From contig CALSOP010000003.1 of assembly GCA_943788005.1 (NCBI GenBank), positions 2,250 to 66,249 on the forward strand: 64,000 nucleotides of DNA. The letters run 5' to 3'. Origin of the DNA: an uncultured Gammaproteobacteria bacterium. Lineage in GTDB: Bacteria; Pseudomonadota; Gammaproteobacteria; Eutrophobiales; Eutrophobiaceae. The translations under genes and the position numbers were made by a program. The notes beneath the pieces were generated by a model. That model had not been told where the DNA came from. It searched no databases and saw only the letters and a list, made by a program, of their open reading frames with translations. Position 1 is the stretch's first letter. Every line of letters begins with the position of its first letter. This document shows, piece after piece, positions 34,203-54,552 of the stretch.

Positions 34203-34619
34203 GAGTAATTCGCCTTAATTTACTAATATATTGCACGCGTTTAAACCATGTTAATTTGATGACAAGTTAGTTAGATTCCTGAAACACTGATTATGCTTAT
34301 ACATGCAGATCTTTGTCTGCTCAACTAAAGTGTCAAAACGTACGATAATCGTACTCCTTGAAACTACCTTAATCAAGCACATCACAGCCTGCATTGAAAT
34401 CTAGACAAAGGGAAAGGACTATATATTTTAAAACTATGCCTTTGTTAATGATAGCCCGGTTGGGCTTTCACTGGAAGGACTTAAATTACTGAGGCAGCTA
34501 CTTCTAATCTTCCATATGAGTTCGCTTAAATGCAGTAACACATTCCTATTATTAATGTAAAACAAGCTTTTTTCTGTTTCTACAGACCGTCAGTAAACAC
34601 CACCCATAGTCTAGCAACA

Positions 34620-35495: not shown

Positions 35496-35497
35496 TA

Positions 35498-35941: not shown

Positions 35942-36094
35942 TGACTAACACCCTTAACAGTTTTCATAAGTTATTACTTTTCGACCTTACATGTCGTAAT
36001 AGAGTTCATTAATTTGTTCCGCTAAAGAACAACAATTGAACACGACATCTCTAGATAAAATCAAAGAATAACAAAATTTATAATGATTATAAGT

Positions 36095-36123
36095 AACAAG
36101 GCCAACATTACGTTGACCTTGTT
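36095..36123 (-). promoter_or_regulatory. Intercistronic stem-loop between the ADH and cytochrome c genes
   Basis: AACAAGGCCAAC-ATTAC-GTTGACCTTGTT pairs 11 of 12 bp. No adjacent U-run, so it may stabilise or attenuate the transcript rather than act as a full terminator. Confidence 0.3.
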
Positions 36124-36182
36124 ATAGTTAAACTTATTAGGCGACTACTTACACTACCCAATAATATTAAACTTAAAAGTTA

Positions 36183-38493: not shown

Positions 38494-39000
38494 TTAAGCA
38501 GCTATTCCCTTAGGTACTTTTAATCCTACCCATTTGTAGAATTCTGCAATATCAGGTTCAAAATCATGGATTACTGGATACCAAGGTACTGGCGCTTCAA
38601 CATCATGTTGACACGCACACTCTGGGCAATAGTACTCACGATAAACCTGCCATTCCGCATCAGGAGACATCAATTTAGGATAAACCTGGTTAAATTTTTC
38701 GACACTATCACGAACATAGATAAGTGCATTTAACTTCCAGTTTTCCGTATAAGGACCGAAGACATAGCCACAGTCACATTTATTAACGATATCACCGTTT
38801 TTATCTTCGACGATGTACAAGTGTGGCGCTAATGGTAGGACAATTTTATCTTCCCATTTTGCTCTTTCTTGTAGAACCTCTATGTACATAGAGAATCGCA
38901 ATGGATCCTTCGGCATGAATAACATACGTCGGACCGTTTCCCAATCAAGTACACCGTCGATTAATTCGGCAACCTGCTTTTTTGTATATGTTGTAGACAT
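38494..39000 (-). CDS. acxC: Acetone carboxylase gamma subunit
   Basis: 168 aa. ..PKDP.RF..Y.E.LQER..W.DKI.LPL.P.L..., NWKL, YCPECACQHDVEAPVPWYPVIHDFEPDI closely parallels AcxC of Xanthobacter as I recall it. Confidence 0.88.
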   Translation of the reverse strand: MSTTYTKKQVAELIDGVLDWETVRRMLFMPKDPLRFSMYIEVLQERAKWEDKIVLPLAPHLYIVEDKNGDIVNKCDCGYVFGPYTENWKLNALIYVRDSVEKFNQVYPKLMSPDAEWQVYREYYCPECACQHDVEAPVPWYPVIHDFEPDIAEFYKWVGLKVPKGIAA

Positions 39001-39068
39001 TTTAAAACCTCTAATAATTTATTGTTCAAGCATGTGGGCGTATCAAACGCCCACAAACGCAGAATGTT

Positions 39069-41402
39069 TTATTCCTCGACCAAGACAACCGTCTTAACGT
39101 CTGGCATTTGACTTAAGTCCATATGATGCTTAGCACCAAATGCAGGAACACCCAATTCTTTCTCTGTTACTAACCAATCACTTGGCAGGCTCCAGAATGC
39201 TCGGAACTTATCCAGAAAAGGCTGTGACAACTCAAAAGATGACGCAAACATTTGTTGAACTTGAACTGATGCTTTCTTATCAAGGATGTTTTGGCGTTCG
39301 CCTTTCATCCATTCTTTGACAGGAGTACCACGAGAAAGACGCTCTTTGCGCATTTCTGCTTGGCGAGCTCTAGTCGCATCAGCATCAACAGTGTAATAAC
39401 CTTCAGCATCCTTCGTGAACTTAGCACCATAGATTTTGATTGCGTATTCTTCTAGAAGAACAACATCATTCAAATCTTTCTCAATATTTTCTATGGTACG
39501 GTCTAATGGATCACCAAAACCTGGGCCACCACGGAGGTAGTTCAAGTAAAGATCGCCGTTCTCGAAAATTGCTTCAGTCGTAATACATTGACTATCACGT
39601 TTAACGATTGCACCTGGCTCCAGATGATTCTCATAATCTGGTTCGTCAGGATTCCAATCATGGCCCATTGGCAATGATTTACCTTCAGCAATACGCTTAT
39701 GTAAGCCAGTATTGTGAGCTTCAAAACGATAACCGGTTGCTGATGGATAACCACCATGTAGACCCCAGTCACTGTTCATGTAGCCGTTACCCATGAAGAA
39801 CATACACCAGTCAGCAGAGTTATGTACCATACGCAGGGTTTCAAAACCCATACCGCCACGATACTTACCATAGCCACCCGTGTTAGATTTGATTGCACGA
39901 CCCATATACAGTAATGGTTCTGCTAATTCCCAAATCTCACAGTCACCCATGTCGCCTTCTGGATTCCAGATAGCAGCTGCATGGTTAAGACCATCTTTCA
40001 TAGCACAAGCGCCGGTACCACAAGCTGCAGTTTCGAAGCTATTCACAGCGTGAATTTCTTCTTCCTGGTTGAAACCACCACCCTGCATCCAGTTACATGG
40101 ATTAGAGTTACCAGCGTTCACTTCTTCTAGATAACCGCGTGAGAAATAACCACGGCTAACTGCTCTCCATAAAGAGCTCCAAGAAGATACCAAGAAATGC
40201 CAAGCATCAGCATGTGCAGTTCGTCGATCGTTTGGATTAGTCCAGGTACCTTTAGGTAGACGGAATTCAGAAGCGAAGAGTGAGCCATCATTAATACGTT
40301 CTGTTGGTACAACAGTCTGCGTCATCATCACCCAGATACCACTAGTAAATGCGGTTGGGTTTGCGTTATACGTATGCCAACCCCAACGACTACAGCCTTC
40401 AAAATCAAGACGCCATGTCGCTTCAGGTTTAACAGTAATGGTACAAGGTGCGTGCATGATGGTGTCGACCTTTGCAAATGGAGATGGCACATGTACATCT
40501 TCATGCATGTAAGGTACGTCAACAAACGCAACGGTATTGTACTTACCAGGGATAAGAATATCGTTGATACGTTTAACGAGACCACGACGACCATCTTCGA
40601 TGATTTCAGAGGTGAACTGTAAGAAGGTTTCAACACCCACATCAGCAATCACTTCTTCGACGATATCACGAATCATATGGTCACCAGCAATACGAGTTCT
40701 TTCATCAAGAATCCAGTATTTTGGAGTACGTACATTTCGCTGTACTTCATGCTGCCAGTCACGCATAGGCTTATCATTGATACCCGTTTTACGACAGGTG
40801 ATTTGAACACCATCACCAAAACGTTGTACTTGACCGTTTGACATAGAGCCTGGGCCAGCAGCACCGGTATCGATTACGTGAGTCACACCACCAACCCAAG
40901 CTACCAATTTACCTTCATGGAAGATAGGTACGATAGTCGCGATATCACAAGGGTGTACGTTACCGATTTGGCAATCGTTGTTGGTGAACATATCACCAGG
41001 GTTGACTGTAGGATCTTCTTCCCAGTTATTTTCAATCATGTACTTGATGCACATTCCCATCGTGCCCACGTGAATGATGATACCTGTAGAAGTACAGACA
41101 CAATCACCAGCGGTGTTGTACAGAGTGAAACAAAGCTCACCTTCTTGCTCAACGATAGGCGATGCAGCGATCTTTTTAGCCGTTTCACGTGCGTTTACAA
41201 CACCTGCACGTAATTTAGAAAATATCTTCTCGAAAGTAATCGGGTCTGATTTCTTCAGTTTAAGCTCTTTCAAACCGTCATAATGCCCGGTTTCTTTTGA
41301 TGTGTTGTACATATCAGCACGATTCTGCGCAAGGGTCTTACCGTTATATAAGATAGACTTTCTTGTTGTAGAACCACCTGATATTGATTCTGGTTTATTC
41401 AT
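39069..41402 (-). CDS. acxB: Acetone carboxylase alpha subunit (hydantoinase B family)
   Basis: 777 aa, the size of a hydantoinase_B/oxoprolinase-family protein. Sits between the 712-aa hydantoinase-A-type gene and the gamma subunit gene. Confidence 0.85.
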   Translation of the reverse strand: MNKPESISGGSTTRKSILYNGKTLAQNRADMYNTSKETGHYDGLKELKLKKSDPITFEKIFSKLRAGVVNARETAKKIAASPIVEQEGELCFTLYNTAGDCVCTSTGIIIHVGTMGMCIKYMIENNWEEDPTVNPGDMFTNNDCQIGNVHPCDIATIVPIFHEGKLVAWVGGVTHVIDTGAAGPGSMSNGQVQRFGDGVQITCRKTGINDKPMRDWQHEVQRNVRTPKYWILDERTRIAGDHMIRDIVEEVIADVGVETFLQFTSEIIEDGRRGLVKRINDILIPGKYNTVAFVDVPYMHEDVHVPSPFAKVDTIMHAPCTITVKPEATWRLDFEGCSRWGWHTYNANPTAFTSGIWVMMTQTVVPTERINDGSLFASEFRLPKGTWTNPNDRRTAHADAWHFLVSSWSSLWRAVSRGYFSRGYLEEVNAGNSNPCNWMQGGGFNQEEEIHAVNSFETAACGTGACAMKDGLNHAAAIWNPEGDMGDCEIWELAEPLLYMGRAIKSNTGGYGKYRGGMGFETLRMVHNSADWCMFFMGNGYMNSDWGLHGGYPSATGYRFEAHNTGLHKRIAEGKSLPMGHDWNPDEPDYENHLEPGAIVKRDSQCITTEAIFENGDLYLNYLRGGPGFGDPLDRTIENIEKDLNDVVLLEEYAIKIYGAKFTKDAEGYYTVDADATRARQAEMRKERLSRGTPVKEWMKGERQNILDKKASVQVQQMFASSFELSQPFLDKFRAFWSLPSDWLVTEKELGVPAFGAKHHMDLSQMPDVKTVVLVEE

Positions 41403-41449
41403 ATTTTATTCCTCTTTCTTAAATCAATGTTAAGTATTAAAACTTGAAC

Positions 41450-43588
41450 CTATACTTCGATCAGATGGAAAAGTCTGTGCTCATCCATAAATGTTTCGAA
41501 ACCAGGCGGTACCACAAAGGTTGTAGCATCGGACTCAATAACACAGGGTCCAGGCATTTTATTTCCAGGCATAATTGCTTCCATCAGAAACAAATCAGCT
41601 TCATGCCATTCTTTCTTGAAATAGAACTTACGTTTACCCAAGTTAGCTTCAGCAGAAGGTGTAGGTCCTGCATCAGGCTGAGAAGGAATAGCCGGTTTCA
41701 TAACTTCAACCGTGCCATGCATGATCGCAGTCGTAACACCGTAGCCTAACTCAGGTGATTGTGCCGCTGTTGCATACACACGACCAAAGGTTTCTTCGAA
41801 AGCATCCGTTAGAGAAGGCCAATCTTTAGCTCCACTGACTTTTTTCTGTGGTGATACAATTTCAAGGTCGTTCAACTGCCCCATGTATTGCATACTAAAA
41901 CCAGGAACAAGCGTTACTTGATCTGCGCCATAGCCATTAATCTTAAATTCTTCAAGAACCTTAACTGACAATTCGTCCCAAGCCGCCTGTAAAGTATTAC
42001 AAGCTTCATCTTTCGCAGCGTCTTCACTATCTGGTGGCATTGCAATATCGACACTCATGTCATAACGATATTCAAATTCTGCAGCCGCACAACCAAATGC
42101 TGAGAAACCAGCTGCCCATGCAGGTACGATTGTTTCTTGGAAGCCTAAACCTTGTGTATAACCATAAGCGTGTACTGGACCAGCACCACCGTAGGAGAAA
42201 CAAACAAAGTCAGTCGGGGTATAACCTTTACTTGAGATCATATCACCAAGATGTTGTTTTAGAGAGGCATCAAGCAACTCGATAACACCAGCAGAGGCGT
42301 CTTCAACAGTCATGCCTAATTTATCTGCAATTTGGTCTTTAATACACTGACGTGCTTTATCAACATTAAGTTCTAATGCACCGCCCAAGAAATTGTCAGG
42401 GTTTAAATAACCCAGCATAAGGTGACAATCGGTTACAGAAACCGTTTCAACACCACCCTCTTCCCAACAAGTACCTACGCGGTAACCAGCACTGTCTGGT
42501 CCAAGCTTAATAGCGTCTGAGTATGGGTCAATACGGACATAACTACCTGCGCCTGCACCAACGGTATCCATGCCTACTAGTGGCAATGATAATACCAAAC
42601 GGGCCATATCTTTATCTCGGCCAATTGCAAAGGCACCCTTTACAATTAATGCCATATCGAAGCTTGTTCCACCGATATCTGAACAAGCAATGTTTTCATA
42701 ACCAAGTTGCTTACCAAGATAAGCTGAACCGATTACACCACCGATTGGGCCAGAAACTAGCGTACGAGCCAATTCTTTTGCTTTCCAGCTGATAGTACCA
42801 CCGTGACTCGCCATTACGCGGACATCAAATTTACCACCTAGACCTGCCATTTTGTCGCTTAGGTTCTTCAACGTGATACGTGAAGGCTCAGCAGCATAGG
42901 CTTCGAGGATTGTGGTGTTGGTACGATGGCTTTCTTTACGACTTGGATAATAGTCACAAGATGCAAATACAGGAATGTCTTTACCTGAGGCTTTAACTTC
43001 TGCAATGACAGCATCTCTAACAGCTTCTTCATGTGAGTGATTAGCATGTGAGTTTAAGAAGCTGATTACAATAGCTTTAATATCTGTTGCTAGTAATTCT
43101 TGTGCCGCTATAACTGCTTCTTCAACACGTACTGGAATCACGACAGTGCCTTGGCAATCGATACGCTCGGTAACACCACGAGTATCTTGAATAGCAACCA
43201 ATGGATCATCATAGCGATGCGAATTCAAATGAAGACGATCTTCGAACGCGTATCCAAGATAACATTGTAGAGCACGGCCCATACGATGGTTATCTTCAAA
43301 ACCTCTACTACAAATCAATGCGGTACGGATACCTGTACGTGAGACCACTCTGTTCAGCATAGCTGTACCAGAATATACACATGTGGACATTTGTCCGTAG
43401 ACTTCTTCAAGACCACGACCTGACCCTTCAAGGGCGTCCTTACTTGAATCAACAACGGCTGTAGCTTCATCAATACTACTTTGCGCCTTGCCTACAATGA
43501 ATTGGCCATCGGCCGCGACGAAAAAAGTATCTGTCATGGTGCCGCCGGCATCAATTCCCAGTACTTCTATAGGATTATCTGAACTCAA
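41450..43588 (-). CDS. acxA: Acetone carboxylase beta subunit (hydantoinase A family, ATP-binding)
   Basis: 712 aa with an N-terminal GIDAGGTMTDTF actin-fold ATPase motif. First gene of the acxABC-ordered operon. Confidence 0.85.
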   Translation of the reverse strand: MSSDNPIEVLGIDAGGTMTDTFFVAADGQFIVGKAQSSIDEATAVVDSSKDALEGSGRGLEEVYGQMSTCVYSGTAMLNRVVSRTGIRTALICSRGFEDNHRMGRALQCYLGYAFEDRLHLNSHRYDDPLVAIQDTRGVTERIDCQGTVVIPVRVEEAVIAAQELLATDIKAIVISFLNSHANHSHEEAVRDAVIAEVKASGKDIPVFASCDYYPSRKESHRTNTTILEAYAAEPSRITLKNLSDKMAGLGGKFDVRVMASHGGTISWKAKELARTLVSGPIGGVIGSAYLGKQLGYENIACSDIGGTSFDMALIVKGAFAIGRDKDMARLVLSLPLVGMDTVGAGAGSYVRIDPYSDAIKLGPDSAGYRVGTCWEEGGVETVSVTDCHLMLGYLNPDNFLGGALELNVDKARQCIKDQIADKLGMTVEDASAGVIELLDASLKQHLGDMISSKGYTPTDFVCFSYGGAGPVHAYGYTQGLGFQETIVPAWAAGFSAFGCAAAEFEYRYDMSVDIAMPPDSEDAAKDEACNTLQAAWDELSVKVLEEFKINGYGADQVTLVPGFSMQYMGQLNDLEIVSPQKKVSGAKDWPSLTDAFEETFGRVYATAAQSPELGYGVTTAIMHGTVEVMKPAIPSQPDAGPTPSAEANLGKRKFYFKKEWHEADLFLMEAIMPGNKMPGPCVIESDATTFVVPPGFETFMDEHRLFHLIEV

Positions 43589-43669
43589 AATTTCTTCCTC
43601 CTAGAAATTGGTTTGTAAGCCGCCTTGGCAAACAAACCAGATTATTTATTATGTTTCCGCGCTTATATG

Positions 43670-43687
43670 AGCAAGAGTTGTGCCTAA
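43670..43687 (-). promoter_or_regulatory. Sigma-54 promoter for acxABC: AGGCAC-AACTC-TTGCT (minus strand)
   Basis: Reverse complement of plus-strand 43671-43686 (gcaagagttgtgccta). GG and GC elements are correctly spaced, ~85 nt upstream of ATG 43588. Confidence 0.65.
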
Positions 43688-44102
43688 ATTATAAAACACC
43701 ATCACCACAGCTTATGTGATTGTATTTTATAGCAATATTTAGAACGTTTGCTTGTCATAGCGAAGTAAATAAGCGTATGATTTTCGTCCGTTCGGTCGAA
43801 CAACGGTCAAATATTAGCCTAAAGAACAATAATTTTTATGAACTTGATTTCGTAAAACTTGAGATAGGCTACTCTGCGCTATTTTGCAGGTAAAATAGAT
43901 GACAAATCTAGTATTCATCATACGAAAAGAAGTTATGATGCAATGGTTCAAATCAAACTCTACCGATTGGAATAAAAAAGGCATTGAAATAATATTATCT
44001 AGTCTTTATTGTTATCTTGAATACCTATTCAATAATGATTTTCAATAATAATTATAAAAGTACGAGTCTTCACTACAATTACCAAGGTCACCTGAATCAG
44101 CC

Positions 44103-44801
44103 ATGCTCACAAAAACCTATAAATCTCGATTAATATTACAATGGACTATCTATGCTGGCGTTATGATATTTCTACTTTGGTTCAGTTGGCAGCTTCACAT
44201 CCTGATCCAAATATTTATCAATGACCCAACAAAAATCACATTTCTGATCGCTTTATTTTTTATAGGCGGGACCATTCATTGCGGAATACGGGCAAATTAT
44301 TTATCCAACCAACTCAACGCTATTGCAGATATAGAAGGCAAAATAATATCCTGGGAAAGCGATGATTCACTGCCCTCTCAATTCTTAAAAACAATTACGA
44401 AGAGTCTGGAAGGGCAAACATTGAATGGCGAACAGTCTGCTGATAACGCTTTACTCGCGGATGTATTTGCAGATCAAGCGCACGCTCAGCACGAGATAGG
44501 TTGGTTTTTTACCAGTTTGTTGGTGAAGTTGGGTTTATTAGGTACTGTGATTGGTTTTGTACTCATGCTCGGTCCGCTATCTACACTAAAATCTTTTGAT
44601 ATTGCCGATGTTCAAGGCATTCTCACTTCTATGACTGCAGGTATGGGGGTAGCCCTCAATACAACTTTGGTTGGCTTATTGGGAAGTATGTTACTCAGTT
44701 TTCAATATTTACTATTAGATCGAGGCGCTGACGAAGTCGTAGCGAGAACTGTGCATTACATGGAGACTGAACTAATACCCGAGCAACACAAAAAGGCTTA
44801 A
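44103..44801 (+). CDS. MotA/TolQ/ExbB-family proton-channel protein (orphan type)
   Basis: 232 aa with 3 TM helices. LGLLGTVIGF ... GMGVALNTTLVGLLGSMLLSF matches the TM2/TM3 signature seen in the two ExbB-family proteins at 57529-59383. Confidence 0.75.
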   Translation: MLTKTYKSRLILQWTIYAGVMIFLLWFSWQLHILIQIFINDPTKITFLIALFFIGGTIHCGIRANYLSNQLNAIADIEGKIISWESDDSLPSQFLKTITKSLEGQTLNGEQSADNALLADVFADQAHAQHEIGWFFTSLLVKLGLLGTVIGFVLMLGPLSTLKSFDIADVQGILTSMTAGMGVALNTTLVGLLGSMLLSFQYLLLDRGADEVVARTVHYMETELIPEQHKKA

Positions 44802-44804
44802 TTA

Positions 44805-45413
44805 ATGGGTATTAGACGTTCAACTCGACAATTCGAGCAAGATCCGTTTACTGATCTGTTATTTAATTCATTATTAGCATTCACCTTGCTATTTTTGATC
44901 ACGATCTTATTTTTAAACCCACCGGCTAAGAAGGGTATTATTGATCCCAAAGCTGAGTTTATTGTTACAATCAAATGGGACGACAGTAGTCCAGATGATG
45001 TGGATACTTGGGTCAAAGGCCCCAAAGGTGGCGTAGTTTGGTTTCGAAATTCTGAGGTTGGATTAATCCATCTCGACCGTGATGATCGTGGTATTGCTAA
45101 AGATAGTATTATAGTTAATGGCGTTGAAATTATTAATCCTCTAAATCAGGAAGTAGTTACCATCCGCGGCAATGTACCAGGAGAATATATATTTAATGTC
45201 CATTACTACAACAGTAAGTCGTTAAGACAAGCAAATGTTGAGGTCCGTGCCGTAAAAGTAAACCCACAGTTAGAAGTGGTTTATTACGGAACACTAATAT
45301 TAGAAAATAAAGGCGATGAAAAAACAGCAGTGCGTTTCACCATTGATGCAGATGGAAACGTTACTAATGTTAATACATTATTTAAATCCATTGTTGAGGT
45401 TAACAAATTATGA
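44805..45413 (+). CDS. Bitopic membrane protein with ExbD/TolR-like N-terminal anchor and a novel ~150-aa periplasmic domain
   Basis: 202 aa. DPFTDLLFNSLLAFTLLFLITILFL resembles the ExbD anchor (NLTPLIDMVFILLIFFLV at 59386-59790), including the Asp. The remainder is beta-rich and I do not recognise it. Starts 3 nt after the upstream stop. Confidence 0.55.
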   Translation: MGIRRSTRQFEQDPFTDLLFNSLLAFTLLFLITILFLNPPAKKGIIDPKAEFIVTIKWDDSSPDDVDTWVKGPKGGVVWFRNSEVGLIHLDRDDRGIAKDSIIVNGVEIINPLNQEVVTIRGNVPGEYIFNVHYYNSKSLRQANVEVRAVKVNPQLEVVYYGTLILENKGDEKTAVRFTIDADGNVTNVNTLFKSIVEVNKL

Positions 45414-45925
45414 ATCAGGCTGTATTAGGGCTCACACTAACATATGTCGCATTAGCGGCTTTAGTGTTAGCAATATTTTTACTTACGCGTTTACCTGTAT
45501 GGATAAAGTTTGCCTTTATACTTGCTGTCAGTGGATTTTACTACCTCACCTTCTATAGCCTTCAGGGTATGCTCGGTTGGCCTACACAACAAACCCTACC
45601 TGAACAATTTCAATTAATGGCTTCATCTATAACGGAACCCGATGAAGAAGAAGGTACACCCGGTCGCATTCATATATGGGCAACGGCATTTGTTGATAAT
45701 GCTCCGGCTGCCGAGCCACGTGCCTATGAACTGCCATACGATCTTGACTTACACTCAGCGCTAGATGCCGCTTTAAAAGAACAACGACGAGGTAATATAC
45801 AACTAGGCAAAAAAGTAGAAGGCGAAACAACAGATGAGATTGCAAAGGACTTATCAAAATATGGTGAGACACGTGAAGAGATTGAATTTTTTGACCTGCC
45901 TGATCCTGAAGTCCCTGAAAAGTAA
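45410..45925 (+). CDS. Hypothetical membrane protein (2 TM helices, acidic C-terminal tail)
   Basis: 171 aa. ATGA overlap with the upstream gene, two N-terminal hydrophobic helices, and an Asp/Glu-rich tail ending DLPDPEVPEK. Confidence 0.5.
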   Translation: MNQAVLGLTLTYVALAALVLAIFLLTRLPVWIKFAFILAVSGFYYLTFYSLQGMLGWPTQQTLPEQFQLMASSITEPDEEEGTPGRIHIWATAFVDNAPAAEPRAYELPYDLDLHSALDAALKEQRRGNIQLGKKVEGETTDEIAKDLSKYGETREEIEFFDLPDPEVPEK

Positions 45926-45953
45926 CCTCATATAAACACAAGACGTTTTAAAC

Positions 45954-46688
45954 ATGAAAAAAATTAATTGCATACTACTAACCTTGTTACTGGTTTTTTC
46001 GCTAGTCAGTTGTTCTGATAAACCGGTAGGTAGTGAATATTTTCCACTCAATAAAGGCTGGAGTTGGACATACAAATCAACTACAGATTACGACGGTGAA
46101 CTTGAAACTATTAAAACAGAATTAACCATTACTAATTTAGGCATCAAGAAATCAGGTAAAAAATCATTCTTTGTCCGACGAACAAGCTCTAACATTGATT
46201 ATTATCATAACCATGATGAATCAGGTGTTTACCGTGAAGCCTTACGTACTGTGGTTGAATCAAAACCGCGTATGGATAGGGATAAGCGTTACGTGTTAAA
46301 ACTACCTTTAGAGGTTGGTACAGGTTGGCGTGAGATAAGTCGACCATTAATCTTGCTGCGAGTTTACCCTTACCGCGTTCGCGTTGGTAAAGATGCACAG
46401 GTTCCAATAAATTACCAGATAGAATCAATGACTGAAACAGTCACAGTTCCAGCAGGCACATTTGAAAACTGCATTAAAGTTGCCGGAGAAGGTTCTTTTA
46501 CAACCTATACCGATTCAGTAACCGGAGAAAAAGAAATACCCATGTATGTTGAGGAATGGTATGCACCAGGCGTAGGCTTAATCAAACAAATACGTCGTGA
46601 ACTTGATGGTGACATGATTGATATTTTTAATACGCCAATCTTTATAGGCGGAAATACAGTTCTAGAACTGAAATCTTTCAAAAACTAG
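45954..46688 (+). CDS. Hypothetical lipoprotein
   Basis: 244 aa with the lipobox LLVFSLVSC|S and a beta-rich mature region. Last gene of the 4-gene module. Confidence 0.55.
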   Translation: MKKINCILLTLLLVFSLVSCSDKPVGSEYFPLNKGWSWTYKSTTDYDGELETIKTELTITNLGIKKSGKKSFFVRRTSSNIDYYHNHDESGVYREALRTVVESKPRMDRDKRYVLKLPLEVGTGWREISRPLILLRVYPYRVRVGKDAQVPINYQIESMTETVTVPAGTFENCIKVAGEGSFTTYTDSVTGEKEIPMYVEEWYAPGVGLIKQIRRELDGDMIDIFNTPIFIGGNTVLELKSFKN

Positions 46689-46736: not shown

Positions 46737-47048
46737 TCAACCACCGCCCTTCTGGAAAGTTATATCAAACTTTTGTATATACGTTTGCATTTCAATCTTG
46801 CTTAGGTTCATGAACTTGAAGTTCATCGGCGTATGATCAATCTTCATTGAAGCTATCTGTCTAACTTTTTGTTCTTCTAAAGAAATACTTATTTCGCCTT
46901 TTGAGAACGGAAAACTAACTGATGAATTAACTTTATCAAAATTTAAAAGATCACTATTACTTATTGTTTTAGTAATTAATCGATAAAACTCATTATGAGT
47001 CACCGCCATATCTCGTTTCAATTCAATCAAATCCGACATTGCATTCAT
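46737..47048 (-). CDS. Hypothetical small protein ending in Gly-Gly-Gly
   Basis: 103-aa ORF downstream of the MoaD-like gene in the AOR operon, with C-terminus ..TFQKGGG. I recognise no family. Confidence 0.4.
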   Translation of the reverse strand: MNAMSDLIELKRDMAVTHNEFYRLITKTISNSDLLNFDKVNSSVSFPFSKGEISISLEEQKVRQIASMKIDHTPMNFKFMNLSKIEMQTYIQKFDITFQKGGG

Positions 47049-47116: not shown

Positions 47117-47368
47117 TTAACCGCCTGCTACAGGGGGCCATACGGCGAGCGTGTCACCGTCGCTAAATGTAGAATTTTCTCTCTCATTAGGGTCAAGATA
47201 AACACCGTTTAGTAACACTAGATGTGCCGACTCTTTAGGAACGTTAAATTTCTCAAGAATTGAATAAGCCGTTTCTGAAGCAGGAACATCTAGTTTTGTA
47301 GCATGTTTTACTGCGTTTTCAGGCAAATACTGACTTAGACCCGCATATAACTTTAATGTGATTTCCAT
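47117..47368 (-). CDS. MoaD/ThiS-family sulfur-carrier-like protein (AorD-like)
   Basis: 83 aa ending WPPVAGG. Starts 8 nt after the upstream oxidoreductase gene. Confidence 0.75.
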   Translation of the reverse strand: MEITLKLYAGLSQYLPENAVKHATKLDVPASETAYSILEKFNVPKESAHLVLLNGVYLDPNERENSTFSDGDTLAVWPPVAGG

Positions 47369-47375
47369 TAACGAG

Positions 47376-48641
47376 TTAAATGACCCCAGCGTTATGACCT
47401 ATTGCTTGAGTATTTGCCAGATAGGCTTCCATTATTCGTGTCGGATCTTTTATTAAATGGTCCTTCCACTTACCTAAATTCAGCTTGGTTTGTATCAACC
47501 CTCTTAGTACGCCTACATGTTGGGTCAATCCAACAGCTTGTGCTCCAACCATGACATCGTCCTCAAAAGAAAGGCTCAAATAGCGATAGCGATCGTTATC
47601 ACATAGTTTTGCGGATTCACCGCCGTCAATACCCATCCATAAACCATAAGAACTTGATATCAGGCCCATCGTATCCAACACATTCATATTTACACATCCC
47701 TGATGAACGGTATCTTTACCAGCCATATTCATGGCAGCAATACGTCCATGATCTGCGGCGGTAGGCTGTATAGCCTGTACACTATACTCACCCGTAGAAA
47801 AATCTTTGCCTTGGCAAACATCGCCTGCAGCATATATATCAGCAATATTTGATTGCAGACGGTCATTAACTAACACGCCTTCATCTGTTTCCAGCCCACT
47901 CCCGTCTAAGAATTGAATATTAGCGGCAACACCTGTTGCAGAAATAACCAAATCAGCATCAAGAACTTCACCATTATCAAGTTTAACTTTAAGTGAATCG
48001 CCACTACCCTTCTCGATTGCATCAACGCGCGTTGAAGTATGTACGGAGACACCCTTATCCTGACACCAACTCTTGATCATATTGCCAGCAGTTTGGTCCA
48101 TCATCCTGGGAACCATTCTGTCACCCATTTCAATTACAGTTAGATTTACTTTTCGAAGCGCTAAGGATTCCAAAATAATACAACCAATAAAACCGGCTCC
48201 CATTAAAACGACATTAGAACCAGGCTTGGCTTTATTGACGATATTTCTGCCATCCTCAAGCGTCCAGCAAGAATGAATACCGGGTAAGTCCATACCTTCG
48301 ATAGGTGGTGTAATTGGGTGTGAGCCAGTAGCAATTAACAGCTTGTCGTAATTGATCACATCATGGTGTTCAAGATTCAATGATTTATTTTTTGGATCGA
48401 TAGTACTTACTCTGTCTCTAATAATATCGATATCTTTATTACCAAAATGTGATGACGATTTTCTGAGATAGGTACCTTCTTCTTTAATCTTATCGATTAA
48501 ATAATATGGCAACGCCATCCGAGAATATGGTGGTTCAGGTTCATCCCCAATCAAAATTATGCTTGATGTTGGGTCAACTTTACGTAATGTCTCTGCTGCT
48601 ATAACACCTGATGGACCTGCGCCTACAATCACATGCTTCAT
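47376..48641 (-). CDS. aorC: FAD-dependent pyridine nucleotide-disulfide-family oxidoreductase (AorC-like NAD(P)-linked subunit)
   Basis: 421 aa with two Rossmann motifs (VIVGAGPSG; VLMGAGFIG) and AAGD. Operon position follows the AOR gene. Confidence 0.75.
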   Translation of the reverse strand: MKHVIVGAGPSGVIAAETLRKVDPTSSIILIGDEPEPPYSRMALPYYLIDKIKEEGTYLRKSSSHFGNKDIDIIRDRVSTIDPKNKSLNLEHHDVINYDKLLIATGSHPITPPIEGMDLPGIHSCWTLEDGRNIVNKAKPGSNVVLMGAGFIGCIILESLALRKVNLTVIEMGDRMVPRMMDQTAGNMIKSWCQDKGVSVHTSTRVDAIEKGSGDSLKVKLDNGEVLDADLVISATGVAANIQFLDGSGLETDEGVLVNDRLQSNIADIYAAGDVCQGKDFSTGEYSVQAIQPTAADHGRIAAMNMAGKDTVHQGCVNMNVLDTMGLISSSYGLWMGIDGGESAKLCDNDRYRYLSLSFEDDVMVGAQAVGLTQHVGVLRGLIQTKLNLGKWKDHLIKDPTRIMEAYLANTQAIGHNAGVI

Positions 48642-48696
48642 GTCTTTACCCCTCTAATGTTTTAACCGACTATAAACCAGAATCTACAGTTCTAAA

Positions 48697-50547
48697 CTAC
48701 AGACCCAGGCGAGAACGGGTTTCATCTGTCGGCACACCATCAAGTGTCCAACCTCGTACCTCATAGTATTCTGGTAACATTTTATGTAAATCATTAGCTC
48801 TGCCTTCTGCAGGACCTGTTTTTGCAGCGTCTTTGAGGAGCCGCTTAGGTAATGTATCGTCCTTTCCTGTAATACCAGCCGCTAAATTATAATCACGTTC
48901 CATCGTCCAAATACGTTCACCAACGACCAAACATCGCTCTGCGCTCCAATCGCCTTCGCAGGCTGCATCTATTTGCGGTGCAATATCTTCAAGTGTCCAG
49001 GCAAATGTTGTAAACGCACAGATCCCGGCAGAATCTACAACCGCTGTTGCATCTTGAAAGGCCTTGACCAACCCTGCTTTACCATCTGTAGCCAGTGGAT
49101 CAGTCTTCTCAGGAATACCTAATATTTCTGATGCAACAGTATATCCTCGAAGATGACACGCGCCGCGGTTAGAAGTAGCGTAAGCCAAACCAATACCTTG
49201 TATGCCACGTGGGTCATAAGCAGGAAATTCCTGACCTTTTACAGTCATAGATAGCTCAGGACGACCGTATTTTTCACACAGTCTTTTAGAACCCTGCCCA
49301 AGCTCTTTACCAAAACCCTCGCCTCTCACAGTGACCTCTGTTGCCCAGAGTAACGCTTCGGCAGAACCAAACTTCAGTTCCATGCCACCGGTGTCTTTTA
49401 CTGTAATAGCTCCTTCTTCAAACAACTCCATAGCCGCGGCTATCGTCGCACCCAGTGATATCGGGTCAACGGCGTCCTCATTACATAAGAAATTCGCAGC
49501 CGTAATTGCATCAAGGTCATCAACCCCGCAATCAGACCCCAAAGACCATGCATTCTCAAACTCAAGTCCCCCAGAATTACCATGATATTGAGGCTTGTCT
49601 TTTACTGAAAAATGGTCTTTGTCTACGGTAGAAATACGCTGACAGGCAATGGTACAACCAAAGCATGCACCGTTTGTCGTCAGATTAGCCTTACCGTCAC
49701 TTTCACGAACTTCCAGCATGGCTTCACCTGAGATTTTACTCGCACCTTCAAACTGCACCTCTCGATGATTACGTGTCGGCAATGCGCCGACCTCGTTAAT
49801 TACATTCATCAACACCTGTGTTCCGAGTGCTGGTAAGCCTTCACCGGTAACCGCATTTTCCGCCAATACTTTCTTACCATCCTCAGACGCTTTGAAGAAT
49901 TTTGTCGGGTCACTGATATTTCCAACACCCCGGGTTCCACGAATAGCAACTGCCTTGAGGTTCTTTGACGCCATGACGGTACCCACACCAGAACGTCCCG
50001 CTGCTCTATGCAGATCGTTGACGATGGCAGAAAACAAACAACCTTTTTCAGCTGCACGTCCAACTACTGCGATGCGCACTAGTGGGTCCTGATGTTTGGC
50101 ATGAATCTGTTCGTCTGTTTCCCAAGCTGACTTACCCCAAAGATCATCTGCAGGGAGTAACTCAGCTTTATCATTTTCTATATATAAATAAACAGGTTTT
50201 GGCGACTTGCCTTCCAAAATAACCATGTCCCAACCTGCATTTTTCATCTCGTTACCGAAATAGCCGCCTGAGTTAGAACAAGCAATACAACCTGTTAACG
50301 GACTCTTGGTTACTACTGAATATCGTCCTGCAGTCGACACCATGGTTCCGGTCAATGGACCTGTGGTCATGATCATCTTGTTATCAGGACTCAAGGCATC
50401 ACAGGTTGGGTCTGTCTCTTCAACCAAATATTTTGTTGCTAAGCCACGCTGACCTAAATAATCGTTAGCCCATTGCATATTAAGTGGTTCGGTCGTAATC
50501 GAACCGTTTGTTAAATTCACACGTAGTACATTTCTAGTCCAAGCCAT
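48697..50547 (-). CDS. aorB: Tungsten/molybdopterin-type aldehyde:ferredoxin oxidoreductase (AOR family, AorB-like)
   Basis: 616 aa. LRVNLTNG.I........A..YLG.RGLA..L...E.DP..D.LSP.NK......GPLTGT....GRY.VVTKSPLTG....SN.GG.FG.E.K.AG.D is colinear with Pyrococcus AOR as I recall it. Confidence 0.88.
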   Translation of the reverse strand: MAWTRNVLRVNLTNGSITTEPLNMQWANDYLGQRGLATKYLVEETDPTCDALSPDNKMIMTTGPLTGTMVSTAGRYSVVTKSPLTGCIACSNSGGYFGNEMKNAGWDMVILEGKSPKPVYLYIENDKAELLPADDLWGKSAWETDEQIHAKHQDPLVRIAVVGRAAEKGCLFSAIVNDLHRAAGRSGVGTVMASKNLKAVAIRGTRGVGNISDPTKFFKASEDGKKVLAENAVTGEGLPALGTQVLMNVINEVGALPTRNHREVQFEGASKISGEAMLEVRESDGKANLTTNGACFGCTIACQRISTVDKDHFSVKDKPQYHGNSGGLEFENAWSLGSDCGVDDLDAITAANFLCNEDAVDPISLGATIAAAMELFEEGAITVKDTGGMELKFGSAEALLWATEVTVRGEGFGKELGQGSKRLCEKYGRPELSMTVKGQEFPAYDPRGIQGIGLAYATSNRGACHLRGYTVASEILGIPEKTDPLATDGKAGLVKAFQDATAVVDSAGICAFTTFAWTLEDIAPQIDAACEGDWSAERCLVVGERIWTMERDYNLAAGITGKDDTLPKRLLKDAAKTGPAEGRANDLHKMLPEYYEVRGWTLDGVPTDETRSRLGL

Positions 50548-50564
50548 TTCGTATTCTCCTACGT

Positions 50565-51038
50565 CTATGCGTTATCTTGTGGAAGATTTTGTGCTGCATG
50601 AGCACGCATTCTTTCCAAACCACTATGATCGGAATCTACATAGGTTATCGCCTGTGTAGGACAAGCCTTTGCACATTCAGGGTCACCGCCACATAAATCA
50701 CATTTTTGAACTACAGCCGTCTCTTGGTTGTAGTTGACAGTACCAAATGGGCAGGCAATGGTGCAGACCTTACAACCAACGCAGATGTCATCAATGACTT
50801 CTTTTGCCCCGGTAGCTTCATTTATAACAATGGCTTCAACAGGACAGGCATGCAGACACCAAGCTTCTGTACATTGCGTGCACGTATAAGGGACAAAGCG
50901 TCCTTCATCATGGAAAGTAAATATTTTTATACGCGATTTTGAAGGATTAAAAACTCCTTCAGCTTGATAGGAACAAGCCATTTCGCATTGTAGACAACCA
51001 GTGCATTTTTCTGGTTCGATCTGCAAAGATCTGAGCAT
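50565..51038 (-). CDS. aorA: Poly-[4Fe-4S] ferredoxin-like electron-transfer subunit (AorA-like)
   Basis: 157 aa with four Cys clusters (CTGCLQCEMAC; CTQC..AWC..AC; CVGCKVCTIAC; CDLCGG...CAKAC). Confidence 0.85.
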   Translation of the reverse strand: MLRSLQIEPEKCTGCLQCEMACSYQAEGVFNPSKSRIKIFTFHDEGRFVPYTCTQCTEAWCLHACPVEAIVINEATGAKEVIDDICVGCKVCTIACPFGTVNYNQETAVVQKCDLCGGDPECAKACPTQAITYVDSDHSGLERMRAHAAQNLPQDNA

Positions 51039-51411: not shown

Positions 51412-52569
51412 ATGTCTCAAGTAGAAACAATTAAAGCAGCAATCCCGCTAAATGCTAGCGCTTCACAGTATGAAGTGAGAAATGCATGGGAAAAGTTTGT
51501 TAGTACTGGTGAGTTAAACCATAAACGACTTCGCCCTGTCATTGCAGACAGCTGGCTTCGTTGTCATGAATTAGGTATTGACCCTCTCGGTAGTCGGGCA
51601 CGTTCTGTAATATCCAAAGAAGAAATCGAAGCCAAACTCCATACTGAAAACTTTGGGATTTCCGGAGTGAATGTATTTAATAGGATGTCTAATACAGTTG
51701 AAGACACGGGACATACTCTTGTTCTAGCGGATAATACAGGATGTATTTTATATTCAGTTTTTCATAAACATATACAGGATCACCTGGAAAGAGTTAATTT
51801 TAGACCCGGTGGGGAATGGCATACAGACGCAGTCGGTCCTAATGGCATAGGCACAACATTATCAGTTGGCAAACCAGAAGTTGTTATGGGAACGGAACAT
51901 TACTGCCAGGGTTGGAAACCTTGGGTATGCTATGGCGCACCGATTCATAATCCAAGCGATCATTCTGTGCTGGGTGTAGTTGATATCACTGGGCCTGCGA
52001 ACAAAATCTGTGTCGAAGCTATGGCATTAGCTATATCGATTGCTCATTCAATTGAGTCTGATTTATCTGTTTTACAACTAACCAAGCGTGAAAAGTTACG
52101 CCAAGCCTATAGAAGGTTGCAAATGAAATGGCCAAATGACGCCAGTATTTCTGTTGATGAATACGGTTTTGTCATTGATATGAACTCACATGCCGATACC
52201 ATACTAAACACTCCATCTTGTATGATAAATCAGTCTATTCATTTATATTTACCCAGCCTGACATACTATATCAATGCGTGTATTACTAATGGCGTTGAAA
52301 TGGAATGTGAAATTGAGTTGGAAAAAACGTTGAATAATAGCGCTCGTTTTCGATTTACACCGATTATTGAAAATGGTGAACGCTTAGGTTGTTTTATTAT
52401 GATTATAGACGGGAAGAAAATACATCATGACTCAACTAGCCTGCGTTCAAACGAGGATGAATTAATCAGAAAAACACTCGAACAAACAAGTGGTAATATC
52501 AGCAAGGCCGCCAGAATTCTAAACATAGACCGCGCGACGATCTATCGCCGACGTAAAAATTGGCAATGA
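51412..52569 (+). CDS. AcoR-like sensor domain + Fis-type HTH regulator lacking the sigma-54 AAA+ module
   Basis: 385 aa. The N-terminal ~200 aa are paralogous to the 666-aa activator (WEKFVSTGEL...DSWLRCHELGIDP; GPNGIGTTLSVGKP....TEHYC.GWKPWVC; VVDITG). The C-terminal HTH is ISKAARILNIDRATIYRRRKNW. No GxxGxGKE or GAFTGA motif. Confidence 0.8.
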   Translation: MSQVETIKAAIPLNASASQYEVRNAWEKFVSTGELNHKRLRPVIADSWLRCHELGIDPLGSRARSVISKEEIEAKLHTENFGISGVNVFNRMSNTVEDTGHTLVLADNTGCILYSVFHKHIQDHLERVNFRPGGEWHTDAVGPNGIGTTLSVGKPEVVMGTEHYCQGWKPWVCYGAPIHNPSDHSVLGVVDITGPANKICVEAMALAISIAHSIESDLSVLQLTKREKLRQAYRRLQMKWPNDASISVDEYGFVIDMNSHADTILNTPSCMINQSIHLYLPSLTYYINACITNGVEMECEIELEKTLNNSARFRFTPIIENGERLGCFIMIIDGKKIHHDSTSLRSNEDELIRKTLEQTSGNISKAARILNIDRATIYRRRKNWQ

Positions 52570-52740: not shown

Positions 52741-53556
52741 ATGTTGAAAAATTACATCGTAATTATAAAATCAAGCTTTATTGCAATACTATTAGCTTCT
52801 AATATTGCTCTTGCGGAAAACGTCCAAGTAAAATTCGCTTACATAGGGCAAAAAGATCATTCTGCATTGCTTGGTGCACAACAAGGTCTTAGCGAAGCTA
52901 ACCTACAAGGCCAATTTCTCAATCAAATATACGAATTAGATCTAATATCTGCAGAGGATGCAAATACACACGACTTTTCTAATTACATCGCAGTCCTTAC
53001 AGCAGTCGATACTGATTCCTATACAAAGCTTGCTGATACTCTGCCAAATATAGCTGTCTTTAACTTATCTATTAAGGATGACCAACTAAGATCAACTTGC
53101 ATAAAGAATACGCTACATGTAATTCCAAGTAACGCTATGGAGACAGATGCCAAGAATCAATGGCAAAAGAAGAAACCCGATTCTACTGTGAATGCTCAAG
53201 CTTGGCATCCGGACTTTGTAAAATTCGCTGCACGCGATCTCAATAAACGTTTTAAAAAGAATCAGAAAAAATTAATGGATGATAATTCATGGGCTGGTTG
53301 GGCAGCAGTTAAGATGACATCTGATGCCGTTGCAAGAACAAAAATAAATGACCCGGCAAAGATGCTAAATTATCTTAAAACAGATCTTGCTTTCGATGGG
53401 CAAAAAGGAAGCGTTATGAGTTTCAGAGAAACGGGGCAATTACGACAACCTATTTTATTGGTTGAAAACAATAAAATTGTTGCAGAAGCACCGGTACGAG
53501 GCATTGCCAAACCACCAACATTAGACAGCTTAGGGATATTAAGCTGTGAAAAGTAG
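52741..53556 (+). CDS. Periplasmic binding protein of the PQQ-alcohol-dehydrogenase-system type (PedA1-like)
   Basis: 271 aa with a signal peptide and type-1 PBP-like composition. Paired with a YVTN beta-propeller gene as in ped/lut clusters. Family assignment comes from context and memory. Confidence 0.55.
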   Translation: MLKNYIVIIKSSFIAILLASNIALAENVQVKFAYIGQKDHSALLGAQQGLSEANLQGQFLNQIYELDLISAEDANTHDFSNYIAVLTAVDTDSYTKLADTLPNIAVFNLSIKDDQLRSTCIKNTLHVIPSNAMETDAKNQWQKKKPDSTVNAQAWHPDFVKFAARDLNKRFKKNQKKLMDDNSWAGWAAVKMTSDAVARTKINDPAKMLNYLKTDLAFDGQKGSVMSFRETGQLRQPILLVENNKIVAEAPVRGIAKPPTLDSLGILSCEK

Positions 53557-53598: not shown

Positions 53599-54552
53599 AT
53601 GAAAATGTATTTGGCACCAATAATATTTTTCGCCTTTGTTTGTAATTCAGTTAGTGCTGCACCGACTGGGCGTATCTTTATCACAAATGAGCGAGGCGAC
53701 TCTGTTTCTGTTATTAACGGCAGCACATTAGATGTCGAAGCAACTATTGATGTAGGGGAGCGTCCTCGTGGAATTGGCCTCTCTCCAGATGGGAATGAAC
53801 TTTATGTTGCAGTAAGTGAAGAAAATAAAATAAAAGTCATTGACCCTGTCTCACTCAAAATTCTAAGAGAATTCGAAGCTGGATCTGATCCAGAAACATT
53901 CGCTGTTCACCCTAATGGCAACATCTATATTTCAAACGAAGATGATGCAAAAGCAAGTGTGTTTGACCCAAAAACGGGAGCGCAAGTAGCGGAAATCAAT
54001 GTCGGTCTAGAACCAGAAGGCGTTGCTATTTCACCTGATGGTAAACGCGTTATCGTAACCAGTGAATCGACTAATATGCTGCATGTTATTAAAGCGTCTG
54101 ACAATACAATTGAGAAGAATATTCTTGTCGGTTCACGTCCACGAGCTGCTACGTTTACTCAGTCAGGTGACATTGCCTATGCAACAGCCGAGATTAGTGG
54201 CGAAGTTGTTAAAGTCGACATGAATACAGGAGAGATTCTGAAAAGAGGTAGCGCTGGTGATAGTAAATCGAAACCTAAAGATGTTGTCTTAAGTAAGGAT
54301 GAGTCCGTCATCTATGTCGCTGGTGGAAGAGCGAATAAAGTTGTCGTCATGGATGCTAAAACCCTAGAAATAATTACTGGCATTCCAGTAGGAAAACGCG
54401 TTTGGGGTCTGGCTATCAGTAAAAATGGTGAACAGGTATTTTCGACTGACGGTGTAAGCGGCACTGTCTCGGTCATTGATACCCGCAATAACGAAGTCAT
54501 TAAAACTGTCGAAGTTGGTGAGTTTCCTTGGGGTGTCGTTATCAACGACTAG
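53599..54552 (+). CDS. YVTN-family beta-propeller repeat protein (PQQ-dependent catabolism-associated, PedA2/LutB-like)
   Basis: 317 aa with a signal peptide. Repeated ~40-aa units carry G..P.G.A.SPDG...YV......V.VID patterns. Confidence 0.8.
   Translation: MKMYLAPIIFFAFVCNSVSAAPTGRIFITNERGDSVSVINGSTLDVEATIDVGERPRGIGLSPDGNELYVAVSEENKIKVIDPVSLKILREFEAGSDPETFAVHPNGNIYISNEDDAKASVFDPKTGAQVAEINVGLEPEGVAISPDGKRVIVTSESTNMLHVIKASDNTIEKNILVGSRPRAATFTQSGDIAYATAEISGEVVKVDMNTGEILKRGSAGDSKSKPKDVVLSKDESVIYVAGGRANKVVVMDAKTLEIITGIPVGKRVWGLAISKNGEQVFSTDGVSGTVSVIDTRNNEVIKTVEVGEFPWGVVIND

Follow-up and report, generated by a model that had tools for sequence, protein, structure and literature searches.

What does a proton channel of the MotA/ExbB type do when no TonB, TolA or MotB-type partner is encoded beside it? 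The question is raised by four genes, ORF1 to ORF4 (here called the module), in a 64,000-nucleotide stretch of DNA from an uncultured gammaproteobacterium of the Eutrophobiaceae (contig CALSOP010000003.1), which is referred to below as the window. An earlier note, made from the letters of the window, had read the four genes as a stator unit with an inner-membrane adaptor and an outer lipoprotein. The explanation we favour, with somewhat better than even chances of being right, is that they are a variant of the proton-motive-force-driven 5:2 motors which was recruited in the window's clade for periplasmic alcohol oxidation dependent on pyrroloquinoline quinone (PQQ). The genes and the region upstream of them are as follows.

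43589-44102 (+), upstream intergenic region, presumed promoter region of the module, 514 nt, with no ORF conserved elsewhere
44103-44801 (+), ORF1, putative channel subunit, 232 aa
44805-45413 (+), ORF2, predicted Asp-bearing helix and periplasmic domain, 202 aa
45410-45925 (+), ORF3, predicted protein with two membrane helices, 171 aa
45954-46688 (+), ORF4, putative lipoprotein, 244 aa

The coordinates and junctions given in the earlier note for the four same-strand ORFs were all reproduced: a 3-nt gap separates ORF1 from ORF2 (TAA TTA ATG), ORF2 and ORF3 overlap by ATGA, and a 28-nt gap precedes ORF4. The motifs on which the note had relied were also found where expected, with LGLLGTVIGF at ORF1 residue 143, ALNTTLVGLLGS at ORF1 residue 184 and DPFTDLLFNSLLAFTLLFLI at ORF2 residue 13, and the strings with which it had compared them are present in two ExbB-family proteins (57529-58875 and 58868-59383) and the ExbD (59386-59790) of the window's Ton system.

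Conservation of gene order across the Proteobacteria

The comparison drew on 107 loci (given L numbers), of which 13 were taken from species genomes and 80 from metagenomes, the others coming from contig look-ups or annotated records; the contig scan used a single-protein query and so reached close relatives only. The order ORF1-ORF2-ORF3 was kept in about 100 loci of alpha-, beta-, gamma- and "delta"-proteobacteria. With the window proteins as queries, 60 loci had room for four genes, and ORF1 was found upstream of ORF2 in 57 of them, ORF3 downstream in 55 and ORF4 in 45. The carriers include Thiothrix, Thiolinea, Candidatus Thiodiazotropha, Salinisphaera, Spectribacter and metagenome-assembled genomes (MAGs) of Legionellales, and further Piscinibacter and other Burkholderiaceae, Polynucleobacter, Rhodospirillaceae and a Deltaproteobacteria MAG.

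Relatives of ORF2 are numerous. A database search returned 3,859 matches with 53-97% identity, nearly all of about 202 aa, and a profile search against 1.84 billion representatives gave 2,122 clusters at 50% identity, 1,492 of them at E<=1e-10, with lengths of about 200-230 aa. Members of the ORF2 family are all annotated as "hypothetical protein". A distant branch (4,443 matches, about 30% identity in ORF2) was found in Azospirillum, Skermanella, Roseomonas and Arenibaculum, in which genes like ORF1, ORF2 and ORF3 stand in order without ORF4. With thousands of homologs for ORF2, and about 100 independent loci that share the gene order, ORF1 to ORF4 are genuine genes and not chance ORFs.

In one marine and Legionellales group (group A), the place of ORF4 is taken by a protein of some 500 aa, in which a vWA domain at the N-terminus and an FHA domain at the C-terminus stand on either side of a central transmembrane (TM) helix. 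It was seen at 11322-12851 of L100 and in L023, L029, L030, L032 and L037 (cluster c13); upstream in the same group lie genes for a cytochrome b561, a YkuD-type L,D-transpeptidase, a DUF302 lipoprotein and a sigma-54 two-component pair. Because ORF4 is absent in Rhodospirillales and swapped in group A, the universal unit consists of three genes, and the fourth position is variable. The suggestion that the four genes co-occur in the same order therefore held far beyond this genome, throughout for ORF1-ORF2-ORF3 and in part for ORF4. ORF1, ORF2 and ORF3 form an obligate ordered trio across the Proteobacteria.

The genes are translationally coupled both in the window and in L064. In the region upstream of ORF1, sigma-70-like matches were no commoner than in shuffled sequence and no GG-N10-GC site scored at least 8 of 11, so that a sigma-54 promoter was rejected; a terminator scan gave nothing above chance. 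Between positions 44000 and 47000, the G + C content of the module was 0.37-0.41, falling to 0.33 just past ORF4, which is below the 0.43-0.48 of the genes for acetone carboxylase and aldehyde:ferredoxin oxidoreductase (AOR) on either side. A 103-aa ORF on the reverse strand (46737-47048) converges on ORF4; it has no family match and was seen only in the closest relatives (L001-L007).

Predicted properties of the four proteins

The Pfam model MotA_ExbB (PF01618) matched ORF1 with 34.2 bits, above its gathering cut-off of 22.9, which bears out the family assignment of the earlier note; the match covers residues 142-214 only, that is, the last two TM helices. Hydropathy analysis predicted four TM segments (hydrophobic windows at about 10-39, 44-63, 132-163 and 187-205), in which ORF1 would differ from ExbB and TolQ, as these have three. 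A single-sequence search with ORF1 found no solved motor. A profile of 19 diverse homologs, compared with PDB sequences, had its nearest match in ZorA (8vvn, E=0.0056, over the TM core and periplasmic loop), and TolQ and MotA followed at about 0.24 and 0.37; against TolQ the profile reached only E values of about 0.2-0.3. Because these matches are so distant, ORF1 is placed in a deep separate clade within the superfamily.

Fifteen residues of ORF1 were invariant: W14, D41, W134, K142, G144, G147, G151, F152, G180, A184, L185, T187, T188, L192 and Q201. K142, G144, G147, G151 and F152 lie in TM3, and A184, L185, T187 and T188 in TM4. The threonines T148 (LGLLGT) and T188 (ALNTT) align with those of the GLFGT and ALIAT motifs of TolQ, where the pore threonines play an essential role. 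Judged by its sequence, ORF1 is a diverged member of the MotA/TolQ/ExbB superfamily which keeps the pore residues.

ORF2 had no match in Pfam, NCBIfam or PADLOC. As in ExbD/TolR, there is one TM helix, located at the N-terminus and bearing a conserved Asp towards the cytoplasmic end, and in 36 sequences (58-87% identity) the residues D13, P14 and D17 (DPFTDLLFN), HLDRDDRG at 89-96 and NPLNQE at 111-116 were invariant. P14 stands three residues ahead of D17, as in TPLID of the window's ExbD. The ExbD/TolR-style anchor proposed earlier thus stands as an invariant Asp helix but not as detectable homology: the ExbD/TolR model PF02472 gave no match at E up to 1, a PDB sequence-profile search returned no ExbD/TolR, and although hhalign aligned DPFTDLLF with TPLIDMVF of the window's ExbD, it did so with a probability of only 0.8%. 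ORF2 was ruled out on this ground as a true ExbD homolog, and the likeness is one of motif and topology, for which homology is not demonstrated.

The AlphaFold2 (AF2) model of ORF2 (pLDDT 82) has a helix at 14-37 and strands across 52-190, forming a predicted beta-sandwich of about 140 residues; a fold search with this model against the PDB found nothing at E<0.03. The earlier note could not place the periplasmic domain, and indeed Pfam and PDB searches gave no match, but a remote relationship was indicated with E. coli YfaP (DUF2135), to which hhalign aligned ORF2 at E=3e-4 (40% probability) with the hallmark motifs in register. These are W-D...D-x-D-x-W/H-V..P-x-G and G-x-Y-x-V-x-x-x-Y-Y. 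The DUF2135 model PF09906 did not match the window ORF2 itself, but 20 of 36 homologs gave weak sub-threshold matches (best E=0.0029), and the Azospirillum branch of the family is labelled DUF2135 in UniRef. The sequence comparisons suggest that the periplasmic beta-sandwich of ORF2 is a remote DUF2135/YfaP relative. ORF2 differs from YfaP, a protein of the alpha-2-macroglobulin operon, in an insertion of about 17 residues and in its fusion to an Asp-bearing helix beside a MotA-like gene. Because DUF2135 itself has no known function, the relationship gives a fold and not a job.

Invariant acidic and amide residues are clustered in ORF2 (D65, D67, D91, D93, D94, D100, N111, N114, Q115 and E116). 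The protein also keeps at least 53% identity where ORF1 and ORF3 drop to about 30-45%.

Changes in ORF1 and ORF2 were found to go together. In the 89 loci with both motifs readable, T148 in ORF1 occurs with DPF[T/S]DLL in ORF2 (65 loci) and K148 with DPFYDML (24 loci), without exception, and TM4 of ORF1 changes in parallel (AL[N/Y]TT versus ALLTT). The ORF2 residues that vary with residue 148 of ORF1 are 16 and 18. Such covariation would be expected of an ORF2 helix located at the Thr ring in the ORF1 pore, and it is the one piece of indirect evidence for a 5:2 arrangement, but it was counted as suggestive only, because it possibly reflects one ancient clade split. The Lys148 clade, with KLGLLGK in TM3, ALLTT in TM4 and DPFYDMLFN in ORF2, comprises L071, L077, L083, L088, L092 and about 20 other loci, and takes in Burkholderiaceae, Polynucleobacter and soil metagenomes; the substitution would put a positive charge in the ring beside the axle Asp.

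For ORF3, the two TM helices and the strongly acidic tail described previously were both seen, in the model and in the conservation. After a TM hairpin come an alpha/beta domain, about 110 aa long, and an acidic tail at the C-terminus that is conserved (D162-x-P164...P169-x-K171). The AF2 model (pLDDT 71) has helices at 3-25, 30-54 and 112-126 and strands at 66-75, 86-95, 104-109, 131-136 and 157-162, and the invariant residues include K33, GWP at 56-58, P103/R104, Y110, H115 and the C-terminal K171. Because R27 and K33 lie in the inter-helix loop, the positive-inside rule would place the C-terminal domain in the periplasm. No conserved His was found in the TM helices, nor any SHLS-type motif or Pro-rich stretch. 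A hidden TonB/TolA C-terminal domain, suspected from the beta-beta-alpha-beta order, was rejected as AF2 and Foldseek gave no such match; the best PDB match had E=0.22, and no fold relative was found there.

ORF4 is a putative lipoprotein as described, with the lipobox LVSC and Cys20 kept in at least 90% of homologs. It matched PF21347 (DUF3108_like) with 33.7 bits against a cut-off of 27, over residues 160-212 only, and its ortholog in L104 is likewise annotated PF21347. In the PDB, weak sequence matches were to two structural-genomics proteins whose function is not known, 4fvs (E=1.6e-4) and 3fzx (E=0.007). The conserved residues are C20, FPL at 30-32, W38, Y40 and EWY at 201-203. PF03544 (TonB_C) matched none of ORF2, ORF3 and ORF4, and an OmpA-family domain, as in the MotB and Pal anchors, was found in none of the four proteins.

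Genomic association with PQQ systems

The earlier note had regarded the neighbours of the module as unrelated operons. Instead, the module was found to be linked in genomes to the biosynthesis of PQQ and to PQQ alcohol dehydrogenase (PQQ-ADH) systems. Genes of the pqq pathway are fused to it or directly flank it in L064, L074, L084, L017 and L102: in L064 (also L074 and L084) the order is pqqB-C-(D)-E-ORF1-2-3-4 with 4-nt overlaps, in L017 it is pqqBCD-ORF1234-pqqE, and in L102 (Thiodiazotropha) the module lies between divergent pqqABCDE and a dehydrogenase cluster. Orthologs of the window's dehydrogenase cluster adjoin the module or share an operon with it in L014, L063, L087, L089 and L102, as in the single-strand array xoxF-like dehydrogenase-cytc-xoxJ-soxYZ-MBL-ORF1234 of L087 (Thiothrix/Thiolinea), and in L015 a PQQ dehydrogenase is located directly upstream of ORF1234. 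A PQQ-associated beta-propeller family and a PedABC-type transporter flank the module in L101, L103, L063, L089 and L065; the PedABC-type genes adjoining it in L101 and L103 all scored above the NCBIfam cut-offs.

Counted over dereplicated ORF2 clusters with at least 8 kb of flank, a strong PQQ-system marker was present beside 15 of 31 when clustering was at 85% identity, and beside 8 of 17 when it was at 70%. Few genes of any genome are PQQ-related, and the association was for this reason judged to be far above chance. The module also occurs in housekeeping or unrelated contexts, namely in two marine groups, Polynucleobacter, L104 and the whole Rhodospirillales branch. Because many carriers have no PQQ gene within 8-10 kb, the motor would not be intrinsically a PQQ device.

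The module-adjacent dehydrogenases belong to a single ortholog group, with 45-72% identity across the active-site segment that was aligned, and the motif ADRNGFF, with Asn and not Asp, was found in all 11 readable ones and in the window's own. Lanthanide-dependent enzymes are reported to carry an Asp two residues after the catalytic Asp. With Asn at the lanthanide-marking position, the adjacent dehydrogenases would be of the Ca type, like ExaA and PedE, and the idea of a role in lanthanide uptake raised earlier found no support. The window dehydrogenase (36183-37934) has a vicinal pair Cys136-Cys137 besides ADRNGFF, which suggests a Ca-type, ExaA-like enzyme rather than the lanthanide XoxF type.

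The window as a whole is a PQQ island, with the following features in addition to the module.

21841-25167 (+), pqqABCDE: PqqA of 24 aa with E-x-x-x-Y; pqqB, PF12706; pqqC, PF03070; pqqD, a 91-aa ORF; pqqE, Radical_SAM and SPASM
30195-37934 (-), PQQ alcohol dehydrogenase cluster: TIGR04558 375 bits, TIGR04557 205 bits, TIGR03075 728 bits, all above cut-offs
53599-54552 (+), PQQ-dependent catabolism-associated beta-propeller: TIGR03866 325 bits, cut-off 287

The 24-aa PqqA, MKWSTPEYNDIRFGFEVTMYINNK, is overlooked by standard ORF lists. The dehydrogenase cluster encodes a relay metallohydrolase (TIGR04558), a SoxYZ-like carrier (TIGR04557), a sigma-54 activator, a XoxJ-like binding protein, a cytochrome c and the PQQ-ADH, a PQQ methanol/ethanol-family dehydrogenase (TIGR03075). 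These neighbourhoods contain genes of the PQQ-ADH and 'quinoprotein relay' sets of Haft (TIGR03861, 03863, 03864, 03866, 04557, 04558), several of which the window carries above cut-offs; however, no NCBIfam model covers ORF1 to ORF4, and the module is not in the curated sets and also occurs without them. A literature search combining MotA/ExbB/TolQ with xoxF, lanthanide or pqq found no paper describing the module or a link between PQQ and a motor.

Of the two genes at 52741-53556 and 51412-52569, the first encodes a 271-aa protein whose match to TIGR03863 (PedB-type; 144 bits against a cut-off of 414) is confined to the C-terminal third of the model, and the second a 385-aa protein with an HTH_8 domain only; the two may be remnants. 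Among those window ORFs that were scanned, none was recognised as a PedA or PedC transporter gene.

The immediate flanks of the module are as the earlier note described them, with acetone carboxylase (38494-43588, PF08882 on the gamma subunit) on one side and the AOR cluster (47117-51038) on the other. The latter also contains ThiS/MoaD-like, FAD oxidoreductase and ferredoxin genes; molybdopterin/tungsten cofactor genes (moaA-like, fdhD, moeA) are located at 10121-14479 of the same window, and AOR-associated genes like those of the window adjoin the pqq-plus-module operon of L017. Genes linked to tetrahydromethanopterin (H4MPT) and methanofuran C1 metabolism were found at 18414-21576 and 25185-26006 (4-HFC-P synthase, DUF447, DUF6513, pterin-4a dehydratase and a pterin-binding enzyme), and such H4MPT-type genes indicate a formaldehyde oxidation module of the methylotrophy type in this marine gammaproteobacterium.

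A complete TonB2-type system is present at 56756-61742 (a DUF3450 protein, a 448-aa ExbB, a 171-aa ExbB, ExbD, TonB and a TPR protein), adjoining a MoxY-like sensor kinase (55244-56581) and a LuxR-type response regulator (54592-55233). Beyond it, on the reverse strand (61752-63035), a 427-aa protein has a response-regulator receiver fused to a eukaryote-type Ser/Thr protein kinase domain. In M. alcaliphilum, MEALZ_3990 and MEALZ_3991 ("MotA/TolQ/ExbB") are repressed by lanthanum along with the mxa genes (PMC6277846). They were considered as members of the module and rejected: no link was found, and two adjacent MotA/ExbB genes fit a TonB2-type pair, like that at 57529-59383, better. The two-ExbB layout of the window may be what was reported as the lanthanum-repressed pair.

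Candidate function and relation to known motors

The stator-like reading of the earlier note is supported: no ExbD/TolR, TonB/TolA, MotB/OmpA or Pal model matched ORF2 to ORF4, none of these proteins was assigned to a characterised family, and co-occurrence of the genes did not fail outside this genome. In the mechanism that we propose, a pentameric ORF1 ring would enclose two ORF2 helices, and protonation and deprotonation of Asp17 in ORF2 would drive rotation as protons pass. The ORF2 sandwich would hold this axle to a periplasmic partner that does not vary, perhaps the cell wall; such a partner is proposed because ORF2 is so much better conserved than ORF1 and ORF3, and, on the analogy of MotB and TolR, peptidoglycan may reasonably be suggested. 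The TM hairpin of ORF3 would ride on the ring like the helices of TonB and TolA, and its periplasmic domain and tail would pass force to a variable outer partner, here the lipoprotein ORF4. In the window's clade, the work done would support periplasmic PQQ-dependent alcohol oxidation, the candidate steps served being cofactor delivery, enzyme or carrier handling, and local envelope maintenance. Taken part by part, ORF1 and ORF2 probably form a 5:2-type motor, the chances that in this clade the module is functionally tied to the PQQ-ADH system are about even, and the role of ORF3 as transducer is put forward tentatively, at somewhat less than that.

A precedent that counted for this proposal is the TPH-vWA family, predicted from genomes and models (Williams-Jones et al. 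2025, Mol Biol Evol, PMC12204202). Its TolQ-like rings occur without tolR, and they have for an axle a transpore helix which bears the Asp and is joined to a domain other than that of TolR. The module likewise has a TolQ/ExbB-superfamily gene without an adjacent tolR/exbD and a partner with an N-terminal Asp transpore helix and a non-TolR periplasmic domain. It differs in that the ORF2 domain is predicted to be all-beta and DUF2135-like with no vWA match, in having one partner gene in place of heterologous pairs, in its obligate third gene ORF3, and in the fusion of many members to PQQ operons. The vWA protein that follows the core in group A also differs from TPH-vWA, in the central position of its TM helix and in having an FHA domain. 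Puente-Lelievre et al. (2025) grouped such non-flagellar relatives as heterogeneous "generic ion transporters".

Several points weigh against the proposed motor. The similarity of ORF2 to ExbD is statistically undetectable by sequence comparison, and the 5:2 stoichiometry and the position of the ORF2 helix are inferred. The covariation of ORF1 and ORF2 may be a single clade split and hence one evolutionary event, and the change of the pore Thr148 to Lys in a clade as large as 24 of 89 loci is unusual for the superfamily. The AF2 model of ORF3 is only moderately confident. About half of the window-clade lineages, and all three sampled Rhodospirillales genera, have no PQQ gene within 8-10 kb, and the PQQ enrichment was judged and not computed against a background rate for random genes.

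The most serious competitor, although we consider it unlikely, is a general envelope-maintenance motor of Tol-Pal-like logic, for which the PQQ neighbourhood would be co-regulation or shared island inheritance in one clade. It would account for the three-gene core standing beside apt/ubiB/ispB/mrdAB in a second group (group B), tilS/accA/dnaE with cytochrome b561, YkuD and DUF302 in group A, lactate genes in L104, and opp/hemerythrin/yajQ/M23 peptidase in Rhodospirillales, and the high conservation of ORF2 fits a universal ligand such as peptidoglycan. However, operon fusions with pqq and dehydrogenase genes, with overlapping stop and start codons, take at least four different arrangements, so that inheritance of a single island is hard to sustain, and the PQQ association spans beta-, gamma- and 'delta'-proteobacterial members. 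The module could, on the other hand, be a cofactor-trafficking machine, its motor powering the export, release or loading of PQQ, or the delivery of Ca2+, to periplasmic apo-quinoproteins, with the acidic patch of ORF2 as ligand site. No known 5:2 motor moves a small molecule across the inner membrane and the core is also found with no PQQ gene within 8-10 kb; to our knowledge, moreover, the pqq operons of most classical PQQ producers lack the module. We therefore hold this explanation improbable, in spite of the position of the module inside pqq operons (L017, L064, L074, L084), the clustered invariant acidic and amide residues of ORF2, and the fact that the route of PQQ to the periplasm carries no assignment in PMC7391723. 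It is similarly improbable, in the specific form, that the DUF2135-like axle together with ORF3 and ORF4 hands PQQ, or PQQ and Ca2+, from the products of the flanking pqq genes to the flanking apo-dehydrogenase.

Two further explanations have very little to commend them. An ordinary Ton or Tol paralog, with ExbD and TonB parts diverged beyond recognition, would share with the module a MotA/ExbB-family ring, a single-pass P-x-x-D partner (the motif is common to ORF2 and the window's ExbD), an extra inner-membrane protein with a periplasmic domain, and, as in the Tol-Pal layout, tight operon coupling and an outer-membrane lipoprotein in the operon. ORF2 also gave sub-threshold matches to TonB C-terminal and AgmX/PglI models at residues 175-195 and 152-191 (E=0.035 and 0.094) and scored 14.4 bits with TIGR01352, below the cut-off of 27.1. 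But features of ExbD, TonB_C, TolB and Pal were looked for and not found, and for this reason the module is not regarded as such a paralog: there was no match to PF02472, PF03544 or OmpA at E up to 1, the hhalign probability with ExbD was negligible, and the modelled fold of ORF2 is a beta-sandwich and not the ExbD/TolR alpha/beta domain. ORF3, with its TM hairpin and unrelated predicted fold, has neither an SHLS-type motif nor a Pro-rich linker nor a TonB-like fold match; no TonB-dependent receptor, TolB or Pal belongs to the module, and the window encodes a complete canonical Ton system at another site. Such a paralog is thus highly improbable. Still less credible is an anti-phage defence module of the Zorya type, suggested by the fact that the best non-Pfam matches of ORF1 are the ZorA models and the ZorA structure. 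The weak matches to the ZorA models fall in the TM region of ORF1 and are confined to the common TM core, with 12-22 bits against cut-offs of 100-700 (for example, 21.6 against 100); PADLOC gave no other match, ORF2, ORF3 and ORF4 having none, and Zorya or another defence system was rejected. ORF1, with only 232 aa, lacks the long cytoplasmic tail of ZorA, and the module lacks a ZorB-type peptidoglycan-binding partner, the ZorC/D/E effectors and a defence-island setting, as the loci are syntenic and metabolic or housekeeping and not variable.

The known outputs of 5:2 motors are few, namely flagellar rotation, TonB-dependent uptake, Tol-Pal function, gliding and type IX secretion, and Zorya defence. 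As a motor, the module would add to these a large and cleanly delimited family of thousands of sequences, with a new axle domain and a new accessory protein. The change of Thr to Lys in the pore, with matching changes beside the axle Asp, would constitute a natural experiment on ion coupling. A cofactor-delivering module, if true, would be the first 5:2 motor for cofactor trafficking. The repeated fusion to pqq and PQQ-ADH operons provides a concrete phenotype to test, and bears on how periplasmic quinoproteins get their cofactor.

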